A DNA stretch of 64,000 bases from an uncultured Muribaculaceae bacterium (GCA_948960475.1 CARDOI010000004.1:5012-69011); one strand, 5' to 3'; positions 8,691 through 41,571 are shown, counted from the first letter of the stretch. Made by a program: numbers and translations. Notes: generated from the sequence alone by a model not told the origin.

Positions 8691-9314
8691 ATGACACAAG
8701 AATTTGAATCAAGATTGTTGGAGGGAGCGGTCAGTGAAATCTCCAGGCTCCCGGGCATAGGACGGAAAACCGCGCTACGCCTTGCCCTGCACCTGCTGCG
8801 CGAAGATGTAGCAACCTCCGTATCACTCGGGGAAGCCATTATAAACATGCGCAAGGGGATAAGATATTGCAAGGTGTGCCATAACATATCCGAGACAGAA
8901 ACATGCCCCATATGCGCCGACGGAAGGCGCGACAAATCCACAGTTTGCGTTGTGGAAAACGTAAAAGATGTTCTTATCTTCGAAAACACAGGGTCATACC
9001 GCGGGCTGTATCATGTGCTCGGCGGAGTAATCTCCCCTATCGACGGCATAGGACCCGATAAATTGCAGATTGATTCATTGGTTGAACGAGTGGCATCCGG
9101 CAACATAAACGAGGTGATACTGGCTCTCGGTGCCACCATGGAAGGAGATACCACCGATTACTATATCTACAAACGTCTCGAACGCTATGACATAAAAGTC
9201 ACCCAGCTCGCCCGCGGGGTATCGGTGGGCAACGAGATTGAATACACCGATGAGATTACCCTCGGACGCTCGCTCCTCAACCGCACCCTCTTTTCTGACA
9301 CAATTATAAAATAA
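8691..9314 (+). CDS. recR: Recombination protein RecR
   Basis: Zinc finger [18 protein letters not shown] plus a Toprim region [14 protein letters not shown]. 207 aa. Confidence 0.95.
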
Positions 9315-9322
9315 ACGCCGCC

Positions 9323-9859
9323 ATGGGACATTCAGCCGGCATAACACTGCGTGCCATCGAACCATCCGACATAGACCGCCTGTATCTTTGGGAAAACGAC
9401 CCGGAATTGCTCGGGTGCGGAATTTCATCAGCGCCATATTCACGGCACCAACTTTGGGAATATGTCAACAACTATGATGCCGACCCGCTTCACTGCGGTC
9501 AGCTACGGCTTATGATAACCACTGATGGCGAAGCAGTTGGCAGCATTGACCTTTACGACATAGACACCCGCAACAGCCGGGTATCCGTGGGCATAATGAT
9601 TTGCTCTGCACAAAGGAGGAAAGGCATCGCAACTGAAGCCCTTTCGCAGATTGTATCTTACGTGCGCAATACCCTTAACCTCCATCAAATCACGGCCACC
9701 GTAAGCGCGGACAACGCGCCTTCCATAAAGCTTTTCACCCGCGTCGGGTTCATCCACACCGCGACCCTGCGCCAGTGGATTCAAAGAAAAACGGGCACCT
9801 TCGTAGATGCCCGCGTATTTCAGATGTCGCTTCAGGATATCATCCCAGCGGCACAGTGA
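9323..9859 (+). CDS. GNAT family N-acetyltransferase
   Basis: RAIEPSDIDRLYLWENDPE... and the acetyl-CoA motif QRRKGIATEAL. 178 aa. Confidence 0.85.
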   Translation: MGHSAGITLRAIEPSDIDRLYLWENDPELLGCGISSAPYSRHQLWEYVNNYDADPLHCGQLRLMITTDGEAVGSIDLYDIDTRNSRVSVGIMICSAQRRKGIATEALSQIVSYVRNTLNLHQITATVSADNAPSIKLFTRVGFIHTATLRQWIQRKTGTFVDARVFQMSLQDIIPAAQ

Positions 9860-11936
9860 CAACGAAACGCGCCCCGTCGGTGTAAGTGGTGTCAAGGACA
9901 ACAGTCCCCGCAAGCAGTTCGGCCAAGTGCCTTGCTATAGGCAATCCGATGCCCACCCCTTGAGACGAACGGTCAAGTTTCACGAAACGTTCAAAAATCC
10001 GCTCCGCATTATCCGCCGACACACCGATTCCAGTATCCGTCACAGATATAACGGCATTAGCATTTTCCTTATCCGTATCAAACGAAACAACTATACGGCC
10101 ATCTTTTGTAAACTTGGCGGCATTCGACAGCAACTGCAACAAAATCTGCAACAATCTGCGCGGGTCGGTATAGACAGTCACATCATTCAGACCTTCCGCA
10201 ATTTCCATCTGGACACCTGGGCTGACACGATGCTTAACGCTCTCAACCGCAGTTTCACATAGCTTAAGCAACGATTCTTTCTTCATCCTTATCAACACAG
10301 AATCGCTGTCAATCTCCGCCAGGTTAAGCACATCGTTTACAATTGAGGTCAACAACTCCGAATTAAGCAGCACAAGGTCGGCGAAATGTTTCAGATACGG
10401 TTTGAATCCGGCCTCCGAACAGTCTATAATCAAGTTGGTATATTCATTTATGGTGTGAAGCGGCACCGCCACCTCTCCGCTCATGTTCTTTATGAAATCC
10501 GATTTGATACGGTTGGCAAGACGGGCATCGTCACGAGCCTTGACAAGGTCGGCCTGCGCCTGACGCAGATTTGTGCTTTCAGCCATCAATGCTCCATTGG
10601 CATGAGCCAGGTTCCGCGCCAGCTTTCGGGAATGCATCCACAATCCGAACGTGACGGCCAGGAACAACAGCAGGATTACCGCAGCCACAATCGCCACTAC
10701 CATAATCGTGCGTTGCATCCTGACTGCCTCCTTGGCATGTTCGGTCTTCATCTGGTTCACATCATAGACGATCTGGAGTTCCTTATATTTTTCTTGTGTG
10801 CGCTCTTCAATGGTTTGCTCGAGAATTTCATTATAATTCCGCGACGCAGTCAGAAGCGCATCAATATCACCCACCTCCTCGGCGCTCTTTATCATCATCT
10901 TCAACAGCAATCTCCTGGCATGGGCATTATAAGGGTAGTCCACATAAGTCTTGAGCAATTCAAGGGCTTGGGCATAATCCTTCTTGAACATTGCATAATA
11001 TATCTGCGGACGCATGGATATGCGGTTGGAATTAGCCGCAAGGGAATCCCGATGCACCATCAGCATAGCATTCCTGTAGATTTTTTCAACTTCTGCGCGC
11101 TCCAATCGCGGATAATTCGACAGGAGACGCGTATATATCACGTAACGGTTCCCGTCATAAGTGCGGTACTTGCGTCCATAACCGTCAGTGCCTTTCTCAA
11201 GATTATCAATTGATTTCAAAAGAGCCTTGTCGCAATCAATGGACTTCTGATGCTCCCCATTCTCCCTGTAAGCCAAAGCGGCATGGACAAGATAGCTGTT
11301 GCGTATCGAATATGCCTCAGGGCGCAGTTTCGACACCAGGACGCCAAGCCTGTCAAGATACTTCGATAGGAGTTCGCCTTGCGAGGTCTCCCCTATATAC
11401 AGGCAGATGGCATGCAACGTCACTATCTTATCATAAATGTCACCGCGCTCGCCAAGGCTCACCTCCCGAAGCAATTGCCTTACCCGACGGCTCTTTTCAT
11501 CGGGCGTAGCATATCTGACTTTGTTAAGATTCTGCATCATGCGCACAAACGTGACAGTCTCTTCACGGTCATCCCCGAGGCTGAAACGCATTGCATTCTT
11601 CAGGTCAAGGGCAAGCAGGGAATCACTGCGGATGTGCAGGTTGGCGAGATTACGGATAATGTCAAGCCCCGTGCGGTCATCGCCAGAGACCAGAGCAGTA
11701 TGCAATATGACTCTACCGATTGAATCGGTCATTGCCTTGGGGCGCAAATCAATAATGTCAGTCAAAAGCCTTATGCTGTCAGCAGAAGTTTCCGCAATCT
11801 CCAAGCGCGCCGACAAGCTATCGGCAATATGGCTGTAACAGGCCGGTTGCCCAAAACCGGTAGAGGGCAATCCAAATATCCCCGACAACACCATCAATAT
11901 TTTAGCAAAAATCCTTTTCATGCTTTTTAACTGCAA
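9840..11936 (-). CDS. TPR-like sensor histidine kinase family protein with degenerate H-box
   Basis: Signal peptide, a large TPR-like N-terminal domain, one TM helix (IMVVAIVAAVILLLFLAVTFGLW) and a coiled coil. The HisKA-like segment reads SDFIKNMSGEVAVPL, with G where the phospho-accepting His is expected. The HATPase_c domain looks intact (LSNAAKFT, DTGIGV, GVGIGLPIA). No response regulator gene lies adjacent. Confidence 0.8.
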   Translation of the reverse strand: MQLKSMKRIFAKILMVLSGIFGLPSTGFGQPACYSHIADSLSARLEIAETSADSIRLLTDIIDLRPKAMTDSIGRVILHTALVSGDDRTGLDIIRNLANLHIRSDSLLALDLKNAMRFSLGDDREETVTFVRMMQNLNKVRYATPDEKSRRVRQLLREVSLGERGDIYDKIVTLHAICLYIGETSQGELLSKYLDRLGVLVSKLRPEAYSIRNSYLVHAALAYRENGEHQKSIDCDKALLKSIDNLEKGTDGYGRKYRTYDGNRYVIYTRLLSNYPRLERAEVEKIYRNAMLMVHRDSLAANSNRISMRPQIYYAMFKKDYAQALELLKTYVDYPYNAHARRLLLKMMIKSAEEVGDIDALLTASRNYNEILEQTIEERTQEKYKELQIVYDVNQMKTEHAKEAVRMQRTIMVVAIVAAVILLLFLAVTFGLWMHSRKLARNLAHANGALMAESTNLRQAQADLVKARDDARLANRIKSDFIKNMSGEVAVPLHTINEYTNLIIDCSEAGFKPYLKHFADLVLLNSELLTSIVNDVLNLAEIDSDSVLIRMKKESLLKLCETAVESVKHRVSPGVQMEIAEGLNDVTVYTDPRRLLQILLQLLSNAAKFTKDGRIVVSFDTDKENANAVISVTDTGIGVSADNAERIFERFVKLDRSSQGVGIGLPIARHLAELLAGTVVLDTTYTDGARFVVTVPLG

Positions 11937-12977: not shown

Positions 12978-13541
12978 ATGAAATATCTTATAGTGGGTCT
13001 CGGAAACATCGGACAAGAGTATCAGGGAACCCGCCATAACATAGGATTCAGAATATTGGATGCCTTTGCAGAGGCATCCAATATTTCTTTTTCAACCGAC
13101 CGTTATGGCGATGTAGGCCGTGGGCGCCTGAAAAACAAACAAGTGGTGCTGCTTAAGCCCTCCACCTATATGAATCTAAGCGGCAACGCCGTGCGCTATT
13201 GGAAAAACAAGGAAAATATCGAGCTTGACAACATTCTCGTTCTTGTCGACGACCTCGCAATCCCTTTCGGCGCAATACGCCTCAAGGGACGCGGAAGCGA
13301 CGCGGGACACAACGGACTGAAAAACATCGCAGAGATGCTCGGCACGGATGCCTATCCGCGGCTGCGGTTCGGAATAGGGAACGATTTTCCACGCGGATGT
13401 CAGATAGATTATGTGCTCGGACAATTCACCCTTGACGAACGGCAGAAACTCCCGTTGCGAATAGACGTTGCCTGTGACGCCATCCGCACCTTCGTTCTTG
13501 CCGGTTTACAGACGGCCATGTGCGATTTCAACAACAAATAA
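12978..13541 (+). CDS. pth: Aminoacyl-tRNA (peptidyl-tRNA) hydrolase
   Basis: [24 protein letters not shown]...PSTYMNLSG...GHNGLKNI, canonical Pth. Confidence 0.95.
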
Positions 13542-13562
13542 GATTGTCCAAATTAGCCCCAA

Positions 13563-14012
13563 ATGAAAACGGAAGTCAGAATAGACAAATGGCTATGGGC
13601 CATGCGCATTTTCAAAACCCGCACAGTGGCCACCGACAGCTGCAAGAAAGGGCGCGTAAGCCTACGCACATCATCGGGAGAAGTCACTGCAAAGCCATCC
13701 AGAATGATTAAAGTTGACGATGTGGTGTGTGTACGAAAGCCCCCCATCTCTTATTCATTCCGTGTCAAAGCTCTAACCGAGAATCGGCTCGGAGCCAAAC
13801 TTGTTCCTGAATACATGGAAAACATCACTCCAAAGGAGCAATACGACATGCTCGATGTAATCAGAATAAGCGGATTCATAGACCGGCGCAAGGGGTTGGG
13901 ACGCCCCACAAAACGAGAAAGCCGGGACCTCGCCAAATTCACCGACGGCATATACAGCGAATCAGACCTGGATTTCGGATTCGATTTCGACGAGGACGAT
14001 TTCGAAGATTAG
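13563..14012 (+). CDS. S4-domain RNA-binding protein (Hsp15-like)
   Basis: RIDKWLWAMRIFKTRTVATDSCKKGRVSL is an S4 motif. The acidic C-terminal tail and the position downstream of pth are typical. Confidence 0.8.
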   Translation: MKTEVRIDKWLWAMRIFKTRTVATDSCKKGRVSLRTSSGEVTAKPSRMIKVDDVVCVRKPPISYSFRVKALTENRLGAKLVPEYMENITPKEQYDMLDVIRISGFIDRRKGLGRPTKRESRDLAKFTDGIYSESDLDFGFDFDEDDFED

Positions 14013-14022
14013 GCAGGCACGG

Positions 14023-14631
14023 TCATTTGCCAATCATGGCCAAGAACTCTTGCCTCAAAGCATGGTTGCTTTCAAAATCACCGAGATAATCAATTGTGTC
14101 GGTCGATGACATCTGTTTCTCGACACCGCGCATCTGAATGCACATGTGCCTGGCACTGCAAAACGCAATCACCCCTTTTACCGACAACGTTTCAGCCACT
14201 TCCCTGCACACCTCCGCAGTAAGGCGTTCCTGAACCTGCAATTTACGGGCGACGGCATTGACGAGCCGTGGCAGCTTGCTCAGTCCAACCATAGCTCCGT
14301 CAGGAATATACCCAATGCTTATCGTACCAAAGAACGGAAGGATGTGATGTTCGCAAAAAGAATAGAACTCAATGTCTTTAACGACAATCATCCGTGAACC
14401 GGCATACCCGAAGATAGCCTGCCTCAAAATCTCCTTAGGACTCTGACGGTAGCCCTGTGTGGCAAACCACATTGCCTTGGCTGCACGCATGGGAGTCTTG
14501 AGCAACCCCTCACGCGAAGGATCCTCCCCTATCAGCTTTATTATCTCACGATAATGACCGGCAATCGCGTTAATCCGTTCAGCGTCGGAAGCGGTTGCAT
14601 CTATATCGAAATCAAAGTTATCACAACTCAT
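14023..14631 (-). CDS. folE: GTP cyclohydrolase I
   Basis: EDPSREGLLKTPMRAAKA...FYSFCEHHILPF...QVQERLT, canonical FolE. Confidence 0.93.
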   Translation of the reverse strand: MSCDNFDFDIDATASDAERINAIAGHYREIIKLIGEDPSREGLLKTPMRAAKAMWFATQGYRQSPKEILRQAIFGYAGSRMIVVKDIEFYSFCEHHILPFFGTISIGYIPDGAMVGLSKLPRLVNAVARKLQVQERLTAEVCREVAETLSVKGVIAFCSARHMCIQMRGVEKQMSSTDTIDYLGDFESNHALRQEFLAMIGK

Positions 14632-28518: not shown

Positions 28519-29733
28519 ATGAAAAAAATCAGCATCTTAGGTCTTTGCCTTCTGACTCTCGGCACAGCGGCTGCACAAAAGTCGCTTGTCAAAGAAGTGG
28601 AACGCGACATGAAATCCAACCCGGCTTCATATCCCGACCAAATGAAGAAGCTCGCCCCGGCGTTCACCGATGCAGAATCTGCAACCGACGCGTTCACTTG
28701 GGTGGTGGCAGGAAAGGGAGCTTTCGGCTATTACGACCAGCAAAGCGTCTTTGCACAGATGGGAAAGGATGTTAACAAGAAGCAACTCGGAACCTCCGTT
28801 ATCGAAGGATACGAATACCTCACCAAGGCTCTTCCCCTCGACACTGTGGTAGATGCCAAGGGTAAGGTGAAAACAAAATACTCCAAGGACATCTACAAGC
28901 AGATCGCCAACCACTACAACGATTTCAACAACGCAGCCCTATTCCTTTGGGAAGCCGAGGACTACCCCGATGCAGTTAAAGCCTGGAACCTCTATGTCAC
29001 CATTCCTGACATGCCAGAAATGGTGAAAGCCGGAGTAAAAGCTCCTGCCGACACCCTGGTGGCCGAAATAATGTTCAACATGGGTATCGGAAATTCCTTG
29101 TCTCAAAACAATGAGGCTGCCCTGAAGAACTTCAAGGACGCAATTGCACGAGGCTATACCAAAAAGAATGCTTTCGACTATGCGATTTCAGCCGCATCTC
29201 AACTCCAGAAGCCAGAAGAAATGGCCGAAATTGCCGAGCAAGCCTATGCCATCTATGGCAAGGAGGACAGCCGCTACATCGGCTACATGGTGAACAACCT
29301 TATCGACAAAAAGGAATATGCGAAAGCCGATGCCCTCATCGACAAATATATCGCCGAGGACCCCAACAACGCCCAGCTCTATTTCGTGAAAGGTGTGCTC
29401 TGCGACAGCGAAGGCAAGCCCGAGGAATCTCTCGCCCAATTCAAGAAAGCCCTCTCGCTCGATGAAAACAATGCCAGCACCCTGATGCAATACGGCTACA
29501 AACTGTATCAGAAAGCATGTGACCTCGACCAGACAGAAGGCGGTGGCCTTAGTAATGCCGATTACAACAACTTCCGTGCAACCAAAGTCGACCCCATGCT
29601 GAAAGAAGCCGCAGGCTATCTGGAAAAAGCATACCAGATCGATGACACTATGAGCGATGCACGCCAGGTGCTCCGCAGCATCTACTACAACCTCAATGAC
29701 GAGGAGAACCTCAAGCGCGTAGAGGCCATGTAA
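28519..29733 (+). CDS. Secreted tetratricopeptide-repeat protein
   Basis: Signal peptide MKKISILGLCLLTLGTAAAQ. TPR-like helical repeats run throughout. It sits downstream of gyrA, as is common in Bacteroidales. Confidence 0.7.
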   Translation: MKKISILGLCLLTLGTAAAQKSLVKEVERDMKSNPASYPDQMKKLAPAFTDAESATDAFTWVVAGKGAFGYYDQQSVFAQMGKDVNKKQLGTSVIEGYEYLTKALPLDTVVDAKGKVKTKYSKDIYKQIANHYNDFNNAALFLWEAEDYPDAVKAWNLYVTIPDMPEMVKAGVKAPADTLVAEIMFNMGIGNSLSQNNEAALKNFKDAIARGYTKKNAFDYAISAASQLQKPEEMAEIAEQAYAIYGKEDSRYIGYMVNNLIDKKEYAKADALIDKYIAEDPNNAQLYFVKGVLCDSEGKPEESLAQFKKALSLDENNASTLMQYGYKLYQKACDLDQTEGGGLSNADYNNFRATKVDPMLKEAAGYLEKAYQIDDTMSDARQVLRSIYYNLNDEENLKRVEAM

Positions 29734-29756
29734 TATACCTGGCATCACAATACAGC

Positions 29757-29798
29757 AAAAGGCGATGTGCATTCCAATAAGGCGGCACATCGCCTTTT
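29757..29798 (+). terminator. Rho-independent terminator of the gyrA-TPR unit
   Basis: Perfect 14-bp stem aaaaggcgatgtgc / gcacatcgcctttt with a 14-nt loop, ending in a T-run. Confidence 0.65.
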
Positions 29799-29905
29799 GT
29801 CATCTTTGCCAGTACCGTCGGCTATTATTTTAGAGATTGTCTAAACTTTTTTCCACAATCTCTTAATCCTGCATTGCCATTTTATGCCCGATAATTTGTA
29901 ATTTA

Positions 29906-31171
29906 GTGGCTGATATGCATTCATTGGAAGATTCTTTTACAATGTCCGGTTCTCAATCCTTAGAGGAGGGACATCCATGCCATTCCGCTTCCCAGCATAC
30001 TACGCAACCTGAAGTGGAGGAAGAAGGCAACGAAAACATAACCAACGAGATTCCGTTCAACCCCAACGATATCTCGATAAACATCGTGCCACGCACCATC
30101 GGCCAGCTGGTCGACATGCTTGAGTACGATGAGATAATTGTGCCACGCTATCAACGTCTGCCCAACCTGTGGTCGCCGAAGAAAAAAAGCCGTTTCATTG
30201 AATCACTGATGCTAAATCTGCCCATCCCCCTCTTCTATTTCGATGAAGGTGAAGACAAGAAATGGCGTGTCATTGACGGACTTCAACGCATCAGCACCCT
30301 GGAACACTTCATATTGGGAGACCGCAAAAACACCATTGGCAAAAACAATACCCCCCTGCGTCTGGAAAACCTTGAGTTCAAGACTGAATTCAACGGAAAG
30401 ACATGGGATGAACTTCCGCGCGAGACACAACGCCGCATCATGACCAGCCAGGTCACCATAAACCTTATCGGGAAAGGCACGCCGGAAGAGGTAAAATACA
30501 ACATCTTCAGCCGCATCAACCAAGGAGGTGTGGAACTGTCGGCACAGGAAATAAGAACGGCATTGTTCCAAGGGTACCGGGTAGATTTTTTAGAAAAACT
30601 CGTCTCGCCCTACACCGAATGCGGTCAAGCGTTCCGTAGAGCCACAACAGGTTCCGTGTCGACCACAAGGCAGCAAGACCTCGACTTCGCCACAAGGTTC
30701 ATCAGTTTCTATCTGATAGGATTCCAACAATACATGCCCGACATGGATACCTTCCTTACGAAAGGAACCAAGTCAATCCCGACCGACATCCCGTCCCAGA
30801 ACAAGATATTCAAAGCGTTCGGACAAGCCATGAAGCTGGCAACCACCATTTTCGAACGCGATGCATTCAGAAAGATAATGATTGGCAAACGGCAGCCGAT
30901 CAACCGCTCCTTGTTCGAAGTGGTAAGTGTACATTTTGCCCAGTTGTCACATTCGGACAGTGAATTGCTGCAATCCCAAAAAGGCCGGTTCATAGATGCG
31001 TTCCTTGAGATGCAGAATGAGCCTGGGTTCATGCAGAGCATAAGCACCGCCACCGCCACCAAAGAACGTGTCAAAAAACGTCACACCGACTTCCTGACAT
31101 TGCTTGAACGTTTCGGCATACGGATTCCAACACAACCATCCCCAAACACACAAACAAATCACAATGATTAG
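29906..31171 (+). CDS. DUF262 domain-containing protein (ParB/Srx-fold, GmrSD N-terminal-like); no DUF1524/HNH nuclease domain
   Basis: VPRYQRLPNLWSPKKKSRFIESLMLNLPIPLFYFDEG...WRVIDGLQRISTLEHF is the DUF262 signature, including DGxQR. The start is either the GTG at 29906 or the ATG at 29915. The first 45 or so aa are low complexity. Confidence 0.85.
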   Translation: MADMHSLEDSFTMSGSQSLEEGHPCHSASQHTTQPEVEEEGNENITNEIPFNPNDISINIVPRTIGQLVDMLEYDEIIVPRYQRLPNLWSPKKKSRFIESLMLNLPIPLFYFDEGEDKKWRVIDGLQRISTLEHFILGDRKNTIGKNNTPLRLENLEFKTEFNGKTWDELPRETQRRIMTSQVTINLIGKGTPEEVKYNIFSRINQGGVELSAQEIRTALFQGYRVDFLEKLVSPYTECGQAFRRATTGSVSTTRQQDLDFATRFISFYLIGFQQYMPDMDTFLTKGTKSIPTDIPSQNKIFKAFGQAMKLATTIFERDAFRKIMIGKRQPINRSLFEVVSVHFAQLSHSDSELLQSQKGRFIDAFLEMQNEPGFMQSISTATATKERVKKRHTDFLTLLERFGIRIPTQPSPNTQTNHND

Positions 31172-32315
31172 GAATTTAAAACTGCATAATTTCAAATCGC
31201 ATAAGGACAGTGATTTTGCATTCAACAATCTGACTGTCCTTTGCGGAGCAAACGGCGTAGGAAAATCATCGGTGGTGCAGGCTTTGCTTGCATTGCGTGA
31301 ATCATATCTCGACAAATCCAATGCCTCCGAACTTCGCTATCTCAATCTGAAAACAGATGCCGTGAATCTGGGCGGAGTGAGAGACACCCTATACCAATTC
31401 GGAGACGACGATTTGATAACACTCGAAATCTCCACGGATTTACAGAATTTTCATTTCAATTTCCAGGCCGACACCCTAAGGAACCCGACAGCCACGATAA
31501 TCCCGGCAGCCCCGCAGGGCCATATCTACGACCATAGTCAGACTGACAAAGAAAGCCTTTTCAACAACAGCTGCCAATACATAAGCGCAGCACGTCTCGG
31601 CCCGCAGGAATCCTATCGGAAAAATGACGCAGTGGTCGTAATCCGCAATCAGATATCCGTGGAGGAAGGGAAGGCGGAGTTTTTCCTCCATTTCCTTGAC
31701 CATAACCGCTATCTGGATGTGATTCCTGCATTACGTCACCCCGATAGCGAAGCCACCGACCTTTTGTCGCAGACCACCGCCTGGGAACGGGAAATAAGCA
31801 AAAACGTGAATATCGTGGTTCAAGATGCACGTGACCTCGGCTACGAATTGCGTTACCAGTTCAGCACCGGCTCATCGGGACGCACCCAGGAATTCAAGGC
31901 CTCCAACGTGGGTTTCGGACTGACTTACGCAATGCCCATAATTGTGGCCCTCCTGTCAGCAACCCCAGGCAGCATCATTTTTATCGAAAATCCCGAAGCG
32001 CACCTCCATCCTGCCGGACAGTCAAAAATGGCTGCACTCATATGCCTTGCTGCACAAGCCGGAATACAGGTCGTTATCGAAACTCATAGCGACCACATCA
32101 TCAACGGCATCCTCGTTAAAATCAAGAATTTTGAAAACGGGCAAAATGGTATCGACCGCAAAAACGTATCGCTATTCCATATCAACCGCGATGACGAAAA
32201 CCATTGCAGTCACGCACATGAAATAAAAATAGACGAAGGAGGAATGATAACCTATGCCCCCGAAGGCTTTTTCGACCAATTTACAATCGACCGTCGCCTG
32301 TTGATGGGCTTTTAA
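31164..32315 (+). CDS. ABC-type AAA ATPase with DUF3696-like C-terminus
   Basis: ORF 31104..32315. The ATG at 31164 overlaps the upstream stop by 8 nt (ATGATTAG). It reads MIRNLKLHNFKSHKD...LCGANGVGKSS (Walker A), SIIFIENPEAHLHP (Walker B/D-loop), ETHSDH (H-loop) and a C-terminal YAPEGFFDQFTID tail. Confidence 0.85.
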   Translation: MIRNLKLHNFKSHKDSDFAFNNLTVLCGANGVGKSSVVQALLALRESYLDKSNASELRYLNLKTDAVNLGGVRDTLYQFGDDDLITLEISTDLQNFHFNFQADTLRNPTATIIPAAPQGHIYDHSQTDKESLFNNSCQYISAARLGPQESYRKNDAVVVIRNQISVEEGKAEFFLHFLDHNRYLDVIPALRHPDSEATDLLSQTTAWEREISKNVNIVVQDARDLGYELRYQFSTGSSGRTQEFKASNVGFGLTYAMPIIVALLSATPGSIIFIENPEAHLHPAGQSKMAALICLAAQAGIQVVIETHSDHIINGILVKIKNFENGQNGIDRKNVSLFHINRDDENHCSHAHEIKIDEGGMITYAPEGFFDQFTIDRRLLMGF

Positions 32316-32381
32316 CGGCCATTTCAGGGATGTCCGAAAACGTGACATTCCTTTACACTGACAAGACATCATAGGCAAAAC

Positions 32382-33140
32382 ATGTATCAAGACCTGCATT
32401 TCTATATTTTGCTTGACCCCAAGCAATATGCCGAAAATGGCAAAGCCTATTTGAATGAACTGTCTGTTTTAGTCAAATATGCTCGTGCGCATCATGCGCG
32501 CCTGTTCTATTTCCAAGAACAGATCGATAAAATCAAACAGGATGACCCTGATTTCGACAAAGGCCATATAATGTCAATGGCCAATATGCTCGATGTACTG
32601 TTGAGAGATGCTGTCCCTGCCAAAAAGCAGCCCCATCTGTTCAACATACATTACCATGAGGATGGCTCGTACCTGCAACCAGTTGAGCCATCGGGAATCA
32701 ATGCCCACCCCCATATTTCCGTGCTTCACAAGAAACAGCACCCCTACACCGAACATGTGTTGCGCCTGACCCAAACCGCACCCCCGGCGCTGATTCATCT
32801 GAACTTCCACAGTTCTCATATCAACATGATGAATTGGATTGTAGGTCTTTTTCCTCGCAATTTCAATTTATCCGACAAGCATGGCGAAAACGGGAAAGGC
32901 AACTGGCCGCACGAATCCGTACTCCTGTGTTCGGCCAGTGATGCACAATCATTGCTCAACACAGCGGTACCCTCAACCAAGTTCAAAGACAAACTCTATA
33001 ATTTCGATACCGCCCACCAGAAATTCATCGAACTTTATTACGAGGGAGACAACCCACAGCACCAATGGCATGGATTCCATGTAGCTGAAAAAGACATAAG
33101 AAGGGTTCCCGACGACATAAGAAAATATTTCAGTAAATAA
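32382..33140 (+). CDS. Hypothetical His-rich protein, third gene of the DUF262/ATPase cassette
   Basis: 252-aa ORF on the same strand, 66 nt after the ATPase gene, followed by a strong hairpin. No family recognised. The C-terminal block reads KHGENGKGNWPHESVLL...AQSLLNTAV...LYNFD...WHGFHV. Confidence 0.6.
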   Translation: MYQDLHFYILLDPKQYAENGKAYLNELSVLVKYARAHHARLFYFQEQIDKIKQDDPDFDKGHIMSMANMLDVLLRDAVPAKKQPHLFNIHYHEDGSYLQPVEPSGINAHPHISVLHKKQHPYTEHVLRLTQTAPPALIHLNFHSSHINMMNWIVGLFPRNFNLSDKHGENGKGNWPHESVLLCSASDAQSLLNTAVPSTKFKDKLYNFDTAHQKFIELYYEGDNPQHQWHGFHVAEKDIRRVPDDIRKYFSK

Positions 33141-33188: not shown

Positions 33189-33252
33189 GTGTTGCAATAA
33201 ACCCCGCGTTGCGATGCCTTCAGGCATCTTAACGCGGGGTTTATTGCAACAC
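33189..33252. terminator. Nested bidirectional hairpin (22-bp perfect stem with an inner 6-bp hairpin)
   Basis: gtgttgcaataaaccccgcgtt ... aacgcggggtttattgcaacac, with the inner hairpin gatgcc-ttca-ggcatc. It lies between convergent genes. Confidence 0.6.
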
Positions 33253-40011: not shown

Positions 40012-41571
40012 TTATCCGAGACCGAAGCAATCCATAATCGCGTCGCGTATCGCCACCGCCTCCGAGCCATCCGATTTCAGAACCGCAAGGACAGTCTGCA
40101 CATAAGCCTCCTTGTTTCCCGGCAACCCACACAACTGCCCTATGTTGGAACGAGGAACCATAGATTTCTGATTATATACCTTAAGGATGGCAGCATAATC
40201 CTCCATCGCGGCAATACGAGAGAACTTCCTACAGAAATCCTCATACAAACCACGGGGATTTATCTCACGCACAAGACCTTGCATGTGTTCTTCCAACGCA
40301 TTTATGTTGGTGAACCGCCCGTCGACACGATATTCGACCGTTCGCTTGACCCTATGACGCGTGTGCAGCAACGCCTGCTGGCGCAAATCATGGCGGAACA
40401 TCTTCACGATAGCACCTTTGACCGAAGTGAAAACCTTTCTCGGGTCATGCCCCGTGAACCTTGCGACAGCCTTGACCACAGGTTCAAGCATCAGTATATT
40501 TTCAATCTCGGCAACCTCCGGCACAAATATGTTCTTTCCTCTAAGATACTCCACCTCCTTTTCATCGCGACGGTCGCGGTCAACGACACCGCAGCTTTCA
40601 AGATGATGAAACGCCCTCAAGTCGTTGAACGCACGTGTTGCCTCAATAACCTTATTGCAGCTACCAAGAGCCTTTACATTGAATTCTTTAAAAATCAGCG
40701 GATAAAGTTTAGCATCTATCGAATGAGTGGCATCACCTTCAATGAAAAGCACAGGACGCCGGGCTCCAATCAGAGCCATATAGACCTCTTCCGAAAGACC
40801 ACTGTCGGACGGCAGCAGGTCGTAGTCCCATGTCACATTATCCGGGTTGAACGAACGCACCCACACTATTGCATTCTCCGAACGCGATGCAGCAAAATCA
40901 ACGTCATGAGTGGTATATACAAACCTACAGTCAGGCCGCATACCCTCTATGGTGTCCCACAGCCGCCTCAAAAGGGAATTATGAAGAAACATTCCTGGAT
41001 TATCCACAAAAATAATCCCATTTGAAGGGGCATACAGCACCGCGCCGAAATAGAACAGGACTGCCTTCTCCCCATGCGACAATTTAATTTGGGAATAAGC
41101 CGTGTTATCACCCTCGCGTGAAAACAGAAGGCCGCCACCTTTGCGGAGCACATGATTATCGGGAAACACATCCTGCCACCGGCGTATCACGGCATCAAGC
41201 TTCGATTCTTCAAGCCGGGCATCGTCACCGCGCGCAACAGCCATCTTATATTCTACCAGCTTCACCATTTCCTCATTCAAAAGCAGCATCATCAGCCGCT
41301 CGAACATTGTTGAGGCATCTGTATGCAGGAATGTGGATGTGGCAAGTGCCTCGGCATAGAGGCTGTCGATGGAACCCGGCCTGGATGCGCCGCGTGATGT
41401 CTCGCAAATTGCATCGAGAGCCGACAGCCGGAACACCTTTTCGCCTAAAGAATCTTCCAGATAGGCCGTGAAACGCGACTTGCCGCTGCCATTGGCACCT
41501 ATTATGGTGACCTGACGCACACCGGCGGGAAGTTCAATCCTTGTTCCGTCTGATTTAGGAGGGAGAAGCAT
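40012..41571 (-). CDS. Fused ABC-type ATPase / DUF4435 (Toprim-like) protein
   Basis: Walker A GANGSGKS, signature-like LSHGEK and Walker B IIFVDNPGMFLH. The C-terminal half has PVLFIEGDATHSIDAKLY ... GVVDRDRR, a Toprim-like Glu plus DxD as in DUF4435. Confidence 0.75.
   Translation of the reverse strand: MLLPPKSDGTRIELPAGVRQVTIIGANGSGKSRFTAYLEDSLGEKVFRLSALDAICETSRGASRPGSIDSLYAEALATSTFLHTDASTMFERLMMLLLNEEMVKLVEYKMAVARGDDARLEESKLDAVIRRWQDVFPDNHVLRKGGGLLFSREGDNTAYSQIKLSHGEKAVLFYFGAVLYAPSNGIIFVDNPGMFLHNSLLRRLWDTIEGMRPDCRFVYTTHDVDFAASRSENAIVWVRSFNPDNVTWDYDLLPSDSGLSEEVYMALIGARRPVLFIEGDATHSIDAKLYPLIFKEFNVKALGSCNKVIEATRAFNDLRAFHHLESCGVVDRDRRDEKEVEYLRGKNIFVPEVAEIENILMLEPVVKAVARFTGHDPRKVFTSVKGAIVKMFRHDLRQQALLHTRHRVKRTVEYRVDGRFTNINALEEHMQGLVREINPRGLYEDFCRKFSRIAAMEDYAAILKVYNQKSMVPRSNIGQLCGLPGNKEAYVQTVLAVLKSDGSEAVAIRDAIMDCFGLG

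Follow-up and report, generated by a model that had tools for sequence, protein, structure and literature searches.

The window analysed here, a stretch of 64,000 nucleotides from an uncultured Muribaculaceae bacterium, carries three consecutive genes, nsnA, nsnB, and nsnC, bracketed by two hairpins (Table 1). The first hairpin, whose arms fold at 29761-29770 and 29785-29794, lies past the end of the TPR open reading frame (ORF) at 29733 and, judging from the predicted RNA fold, is likely to separate this gene from the cassette. The arms of the second hairpin are at 33191-33210 and 33231-33250 (RNA fold); with 64 nt, it is near-perfect and unusually long for a simple terminator. A scan for sigma-70 promoters and terminators, which is ill-suited to Bacteroidota promoters, found fewer sites than in shuffled sequence.

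Table 1. Genes, protein domains, and hairpins of the cassette (positions in the window)
Feature	Position	Strand	Description
Hairpin then T-run, after upstream TPR lipoprotein gene	29755..29800	+	Likely terminator; dG -28.6 kcal/mol
nsnA	29915..31171	+	418 aa, ParB-like DUF262 (GmrSD_N), predicted DNA sensor; PADLOC NsnA 3.1e-116, Pfam GmrSD_N 2e-24
nsnB	31164..32315	+	383 aa, ABC-type ATPase with DUF3696 tail, predicted transducer; PADLOC NsnB 3.4e-100
nsnC	32382..33140	+	252 aa, predicted effector; PADLOC PDLC03909 2e-43, AF2 pLDDT 91.2
NsnC N-terminal domain, residues 1-157	32382..32852	+	Alpha/beta, fast-evolving, His-rich in this lineage
NsnC C-terminal domain, residues 158-252	32853..33137	+	Conserved KHGENGKG...EGDNPQxQWHGFH block; predicted metal-independent RNase-type toxin domain
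Hairpin between nsnC and convergent DUF4136 lipoprotein gene	33189..33252	.	Likely bidirectional terminator; dG -52.6 kcal/mol

In public contigs, nsnA is called with the same start and length. The N terminus of its product is an acidic low-complexity leader without an additional sensor domain, and the system is therefore of Type I. The motifs YQRLPNLW, DGLQR, and FSRIN, equivalent to motifs I-III of Li et al. 2025 (PMC12065111), are all intact. A GmrSD/Type IV restriction enzyme was considered and rejected, as NsnA matches GmrSD_N only, with no GmrSD_C/DUF1524. On the basis of public gene calls, the nsnB gene most likely starts at the ATG at 31164 rather than at 31104 and so shares 8 nt with the end of nsnA. 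NsnB has the Pfam domains AAA_15, AAA_21, and DUF3696, and its Walker A (GANGVGKS), Walker B (IIFIEN, the "EN" variant), GFG signature, and H-loop (ETHS) are intact.

The third gene is an uninterrupted ORF, and the opposite strand of the same segment has stops throughout. The length of 252 aa and the 36 G+C in the first 100 nt that had been reported for it in the initial annotation are both exact, and the lack of a signal peptide or transmembrane helix holds as well (the highest Kyte-Doolittle mean over 19 residues is 0.82, with no hydrophobic stretch). The identical protein is present on 179 public contigs; together with a dN/dS of 0.15, this establishes nsnC as a real coding gene, and the possibility of a pseudogene was rejected on the same dN/dS. 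The GC content of nsnC is 45.2%, compared with 49.5% for the window, 48% for nsnA plus nsnB, and 46.7% for the flanking DUF4136 gene (neighbors overall, ~47-53%). Thus, the count behind the earlier hint of low GC was right, but the signal is weak and does not indicate an origin separate from that of nsnA and nsnB. Foreign origin was likewise rejected, given the 47-53% GC of the neighbors and a sister lineage that has the cassette at the same site, with dS ~0.8 between the two; the cassette is therefore a long-standing resident.

Family membership and conservation of the gene order

The protein encoded by nsnC had been described as an orphan and a probably undescribed component of its cassette. 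This view did not survive the comparison with the PADLOC NsnC model (PDLC03909): the protein matches the model along its entire length, with 147 bits and residues 1-251 aligned to positions 1-269 of the 274 in the profile, and the family has been analysed in Li et al. 2025 (PMC12065111). Most of the signal comes from the C-domain, which by itself gives 124 bits (E 2e-36), with 22.7 bits (E 1.6e-5) for the N-domain by itself. The two genes upstream match the PADLOC models of NsnA and NsnB (Table 1). Pfam and NCBIfam gave no match to NsnC, even with E values from 0.1 to 10, which explains why it could not be placed before; among the libraries tried, PADLOC alone recognises it. Profiles of the full-length protein and of the C-domain found only chance-level matches among the sequences of solved structures. 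Considering all this, the uncultured Muribaculaceae bacterium very probably has an anti-phage operon of the Menshen type (nsnABC, Type I), in which the ORF is the third gene, nsnC, and codes for the predicted effector. Judged by its sequence, this NsnC is an ordinary further member of an already described family.

Menshen consists of NsnABC, and its prototype is that of Solibacillus silvestris StLB046, which protects against phages T2, T4, T6, and Fado (both according to Millman et al. 2022, as cited in PMC12065111). Defence has been demonstrated experimentally for the S. silvestris system only; for the clade of the window it is predicted. A comparative study of Menshen (Li, Tan, Basu, Corbett and Zhang, NAR 2025, PMC12065111) proposed, as a bioinformatic model, that NsnA is the sensor, NsnB the transducer, and NsnC the effector. 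In the same study, NsnC combines an N-domain that is variable and described as "inactive PIN-like" with an effector domain at the C terminus; 35 N-domain and 15 C-domain classes are distinguished, and nine of the 15 C-domains are BECR-fold RNases. The C-terminal slot is filled in other Menshen systems by Gp49, YoeB-like, Ntox18, Toprim, or PLD domains, and the commonest C-domain class is PB-BECR1, which includes the C-domain of the S. silvestris NsnC with its H-R-H triad (PMC12065111). The cassette in the window shares with the prototype and the systems of Li et al. the gene order, a DUF262 NsnA, an NsnB made of an ABC-ATPase plus DUF3696, and a two-domain NsnC of ~250-300 aa. The variants described for NsnB (PMC12065111), "EN" in Walker B and "GxG" in the signature, are also present in the window protein, and the window NsnC has the variable N-domain without PIN catalytic residues next to a conserved, small toxin-like C-domain. 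The cassette differs from the prototype in its host, an uncultured Muribaculaceae, and in the unusually His-rich N-domain of NsnC in the window lineage. The host was assigned by the names that members of its 90%-identity GyrA and ClpB clusters bear. A complete Type I Menshen defence operon of a Muribaculaceae gut bacterium is an appropriate label for the locus, which by itself has little significance beyond annotation.

A search of 5.8 billion proteins recovered 48 relatives of NsnC with the single sequence and 236 with a profile; a Pfam domain is absent from all of the relatives listed, and where a name is given it is nearly always "hypothetical". We examined 16 NsnC loci from species-representative genomes (Bacteroidota, Methylococcales, Leptospiraceae, and others). 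An nsnB gene lies directly upstream of the NsnC relative in 16/16, and NsnA is also present in 14; of the remaining two loci, one is cut by the contig end and the other has no NsnA match. Three distant relatives that have only the C-domain in common (from Nitrospirae, Ca. Magnetominusculus, and a metagenome contig) show the order GmrSD_N, AAA_15/DUF3696, NsnC. In the sister lineage, whose NsnC is 79% identical, the cassette occupies the same chromosomal site, between the TPR and DUF4136 genes. An NsnB-type gene thus adjoins in all 16 + 3 + 1 relatives, and an NsnA-type gene is upstream in every one where it could be scored. The proposed membership in a cassette of DUF262 and ATPase/DUF3696 genes was therefore borne out, since the homologs examined always adjoin such genes; rather than occurring mainly in unrelated contexts, NsnC is tied to the cassette in all of the relatives examined.

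The C-domain was also searched for separately. An exhaustive profile search (E <= 1e-3) gave 405 representative proteins. Among the 150 of these matches that were listed, the full-length ones are nearly all of 250-305 aa with the domain at the C terminus, two exceed this range (up to 345 aa), and those below it appear to be fragments; a long multidomain polymorphic toxin with the C-domain of NsnC was not found among these 150 of 405. A scan of viral contigs found no NsnC relatives.

Two of the loci have peculiarities of their own. In a Sphingobacteriales MAG (L020, 7001-7779 and 4780-5843), the NsnA and NsnC matches are each split into two overlapping segments, which suggests frameshifts, by either pseudogenisation or assembly error. 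In a Cytophagales MAG (L021), there is a second pair of NsnB and NsnC C-domain at 13075-14347, on the opposite strand and ~6 kb from the first, so that this genome has two Menshen-like cassettes side by side; an NsnA match was not detected for the first one.

Domain organization of NsnC

The AlphaFold2 model of NsnC, built from an alignment of 44 sequences (pLDDT 91.2, pTM 0.85), clearly has two domains: an alpha/beta N-domain (residues 1 to ~157) and a C-domain of ~95 aa (158-252). All 11 invariant columns of the family fall in the C-domain (R159, K166, H167, G168, L181, A188, L192, E221, H230, H233, and P243). The compact C-terminal block that had been singled out from the sequence is indeed the conserved part of the protein, and the WHGFH stretch within it holds two of the three invariant histidines.

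The N-domain alignment has no invariant acidic residue, so the D-E-D-D site of PIN nucleases is absent. Likeness to PIN domains is restricted to weak Foldseek matches (1v8p_B, E 1.6, and the HARP structure 8kd9_E, E 1.5). In four loci with matching C-domains (L018, L019, L021, and L022), this domain is swapped for unrelated N-domains. It would correspond, by analogy, to the "inactive PIN-like" domain of the literature, involved in NsnB docking or target recognition, with the PIN fold itself being putative.

The abundance of histidine in the middle of the protein is real. NsnC has 21 His in 252 residues (8.3%), against 1.4% across nine neighboring proteins (binomial P ~2e-10), with a peak of 14.3% at residues 81-157 (11/77; window positions 32622..32852). 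However, this enrichment is a quirk of one lineage in the variable N-domain and is not conserved in the family. Other NsnC members contain 2-5.5% His, and 8.3% is reached only by the window protein and its 79%-identical sister, which have in common 13 of the 15 His among the 157 residues of the N-domain. The only invariant His in the family are H167, H230, and H233; H37 (80% of sequences), H6 (66%), and H212 (52%) are partly conserved. Between positions 85 and 146 there are ten His; eight of these occur as His in <=11% of the sequences, and the other two, H85 and H109, in 23% and 30%.

The C-domain is laid out as short strands (~160-172), a helix (185-193), three further strands (204-209, 214-220, and 228-233), and two short helices. 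It has no Pfam match, and the NsnC alignment has no conserved Asp/Glu cluster and no HNH or PD-(D/E)xK motif. Metal-independent RNases such as barnase, RNase T1, and the RelE-family toxins use a His/Glu acid-base pair together with Arg/Lys on a scaffold of a helix plus a sheet. The invariant set R159, K166, H167, E221, H230, and H233 resembles, by analogy, the active site of these enzymes, and the C-domain is predicted to be an RNase-type toxin with a BECR-like helix-plus-sheet layout. The invariant R159, H167, and H230/H233 would also be compatible with, and are not proof of, an H-R-H triad of the PB-BECR1 type. Six of the invariant residues (R159, K166, H167, E221, H230, and H233) are concrete targets for mutagenesis, and we found no biochemically characterised NsnC in the literature.

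Structural searches with Foldseek gave no match to the whole NsnC model in the PDB at E <= 1e-3; the top ones (SPOUT methyltransferases and thioredoxin reductases) have TM scores below 0.25 and were treated as noise. A separate model of the C-domain (pLDDT 86) has its best PDB match in chains E-H of 5T87, a CdiA-CT toxin, with a Foldseek probability of 0.92-0.98 and an E value of 0.06 (TM 0.58-0.63 on the 69-75-residue toxin, rmsd ~3 A, 18-22% identity over 63-67 columns). RelE appears in the same list at rank 47 (E 4, TM 0.30), YafQ is outside the top 50, and viral structures gave nothing convincing. It is tempting to go one step further and propose that the C-domain fold is that of the 5T87-type toxins of contact-dependent inhibition (CDI), not a RelE/YafQ-like one, and that the His enrichment of this lineage is functional as well, for example as a metal- or pH-responsive switch for effector release, a combination that we regard as unlikely. 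If true, both would be features undescribed for Menshen.

Evolution and population state of the cassette

Comparison with the sister lineage (dS ~0.8) shows different degrees of conservation within the locus. The flanking TPR (97.5% identity, dN/dS 0.017) and DUF4136 (94.6%, 0.03) proteins are followed by NsnB (90.9%, 0.05), NsnA (83.7% identity), and NsnC (79.4%, 0.15), the last of which evolves faster than the neighboring genes (dN/dS 0.02-0.05) and is still under long-term purifying selection. Within NsnC, the N-domain (74.5%, 0.21) changes faster than any other part of the locus, which agrees with the published polymorphism, and the C-domain is better preserved (87.4%, 0.08). That NsnC is the fastest-evolving component is another trait in common with Menshen. 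Across phyla, identities are mostly 54-68% for NsnA and NsnB (~38-47% in the most divergent loci) and 34-40% for full-length NsnC, and this greater divergence of NsnC fits the polymorphic-effector picture of Li et al. (PMC12065111).

Among 24 contigs of the same species, chosen by their identical TPR protein, the cassette is intact in 13 and reduced to a decayed remnant in 11. The remnant results from the deletion of window positions 29835-31469 and 31770-32897; nsnA, the greater part of nsnB, and two thirds of nsnC are gone, and a 300-bp internal fragment of nsnB is left, fused to the final 243 bp of nsnC. Decay thus affects the cassette as a whole: instead of a frameshifted nsnC next to intact partners, the 11 contigs have lost nsnA, nsnB, and nsnC together. 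Intact and decayed alleles coexist in one species, and metagenomes could be used to relate this natural presence/absence polymorphism to phage load.

The edges of the cassette were also looked at. In the remnants of L023 and L025 (positions 9216-9957), for example, the first deletion begins just past the upstream terminator hairpin. In two other contigs of the species (L003 and L005, 3450-4185), the downstream DUF4136 gene is called as 135 aa versus 204 aa, and there is a larger gap after nsnC, so that the 3' edge of the cassette seems to vary in structure as well.

Predicted function and comparison with other systems

According to the published model (PMC12065111), NsnA, with a ParB-like DUF262 and a DNA-binding domain, would sense phage DNA, while the DUF3696 tails of a tetramer of the NsnB ABC ATPase would clamp the N-domain of NsnC and hold the toxin in check; after sensing, ATP binding or hydrolysis would release or activate NsnC. 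The C-domain would then cleave RNA, and phage replication would stop, possibly via abortive infection. We infer this sensor-transducer-effector scheme from the published bioinformatic model and general enzymology, and no biochemical activity of NsnC has been reported in the accessible literature.

The initial annotation had offered two roles for this protein, effector or specificity subunit. The former agrees with the published predicted model (PMC12065111). The latter amounts to a rival reading, in which NsnC would be a non-catalytic adaptor that binds nucleic acid or a phage protein and NsnA or NsnB would be the real effector. The N-domain is certainly the most variable part of the locus, as in a specificity determinant, ParB/DUF262 proteins are NTPases that partner nucleases in GmrSD and SspE (PMC12065111), and the nuclease role of NsnC is so far a predicted one. 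However, NsnA has GmrSD_N alone, without DUF1524/HNH, and NsnB has no nuclease domain in Pfam; the C-domain keeps, across phyla, a His/His/His/Glu/Arg/Lys set such as catalytic sites typically have, the solved fold nearest to it is that of a toxin domain, and recognised nuclease domains occupy the same position in other Menshen systems (PMC12065111). An adaptor without catalysis therefore seems quite improbable. The C-domain could also be an effector with a chemistry or target other than RNA cleavage, such as a DNase or a nucleotide- or NAD-degrading enzyme, considering that the fold was assigned on weak Foldseek E values (0.06 at best) and that there is neither a Pfam match nor a sequence match to solved structures. 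We give this a very small chance, since a helix followed by an antiparallel sheet together with the His/Glu/Arg/Lys residues fits the pattern of BECR RNases reported for the majority of NsnC C-domains (PMC12065111), and no conserved Asp/Glu cluster, HNH, or PD-(D/E)xK motif suggests a metal-dependent DNase.

The remnant with two deletions in 11 of the 24 conspecific contigs might even be taken to mean that nsnC is a decaying, non-functional passenger of a cassette on its way out. This is scarcely credible: the window and 13/24 contigs have intact ORFs for all three genes, the dN/dS values against the sister lineage (0.15 for NsnC and 0.05 for NsnB, at dS ~0.8) indicate constraint, the residues of catalytic type are in place, and the decay hits the cassette as a whole. 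A predicted RNase-type effector of a Menshen operon is the reading that we prefer for NsnC.

The closest structural counterpart of this predicted effector domain is the CdiA-CT of Cupriavidus taiwanensis LMG 19424 (5T87, a CDI toxin/immunity complex), and both are small C-terminal toxin modules. Sequence homology between them is undetectable by profile search, and the Foldseek E value is 0.06. CdiA-CT travels from cell to cell on a giant filament and has an immunity protein that neutralises it, whereas NsnC acts as an intracellular protein, carries an NsnB-docking domain in the same chain, and is without an adjacent immunity gene. The link in fold between the C-domain and CDI toxins, resting on the modelled structure, would support a common pool of domains for defence effectors and interbacterial toxins. 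Compared with toxins of the RelE/YafQ/YoeB type (BECR), NsnC has no antitoxin gene with it, and RelE comes only at rank 47 in the structural search.

At the level of the whole system, Menshen is similar to PARIS (AriA/AriB), Septu (PtuA/PtuB), and Gabija (GajA), and the window NsnB scores on the AriA, PtuA, and GajA models. The logic in common is that of an ATPase that restrains a nuclease until infection, the Menshen complex being a predicted one; the NsnB tetramer is predicted to bind NsnC asymmetrically, as in Septu and PARIS (PMC12065111). The effectors of PARIS, Septu, and Gabija are Toprim or HNH nucleases, whereas the NsnC of Menshen has a small BECR-like domain (predicted), and Menshen has an extra sensor subunit, the DUF262 protein.

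Other defence genes were seen close to Menshen operons. In one of the distant relatives (L032, 6023-7744), a full GmrSD Type IV restriction gene (GmrSD_N plus GmrSD_C) comes directly after the Menshen operon, which is an example of defence-gene clustering. In the window itself, a fused PARIS-like gene, AriAB (40012..41571, minus strand; 519 aa, AAA_21 plus DUF4435, PADLOC 2e-94), lies ~7 kb from the Menshen cassette, with a TonB-receptor/DUF5074 gene cluster between them.
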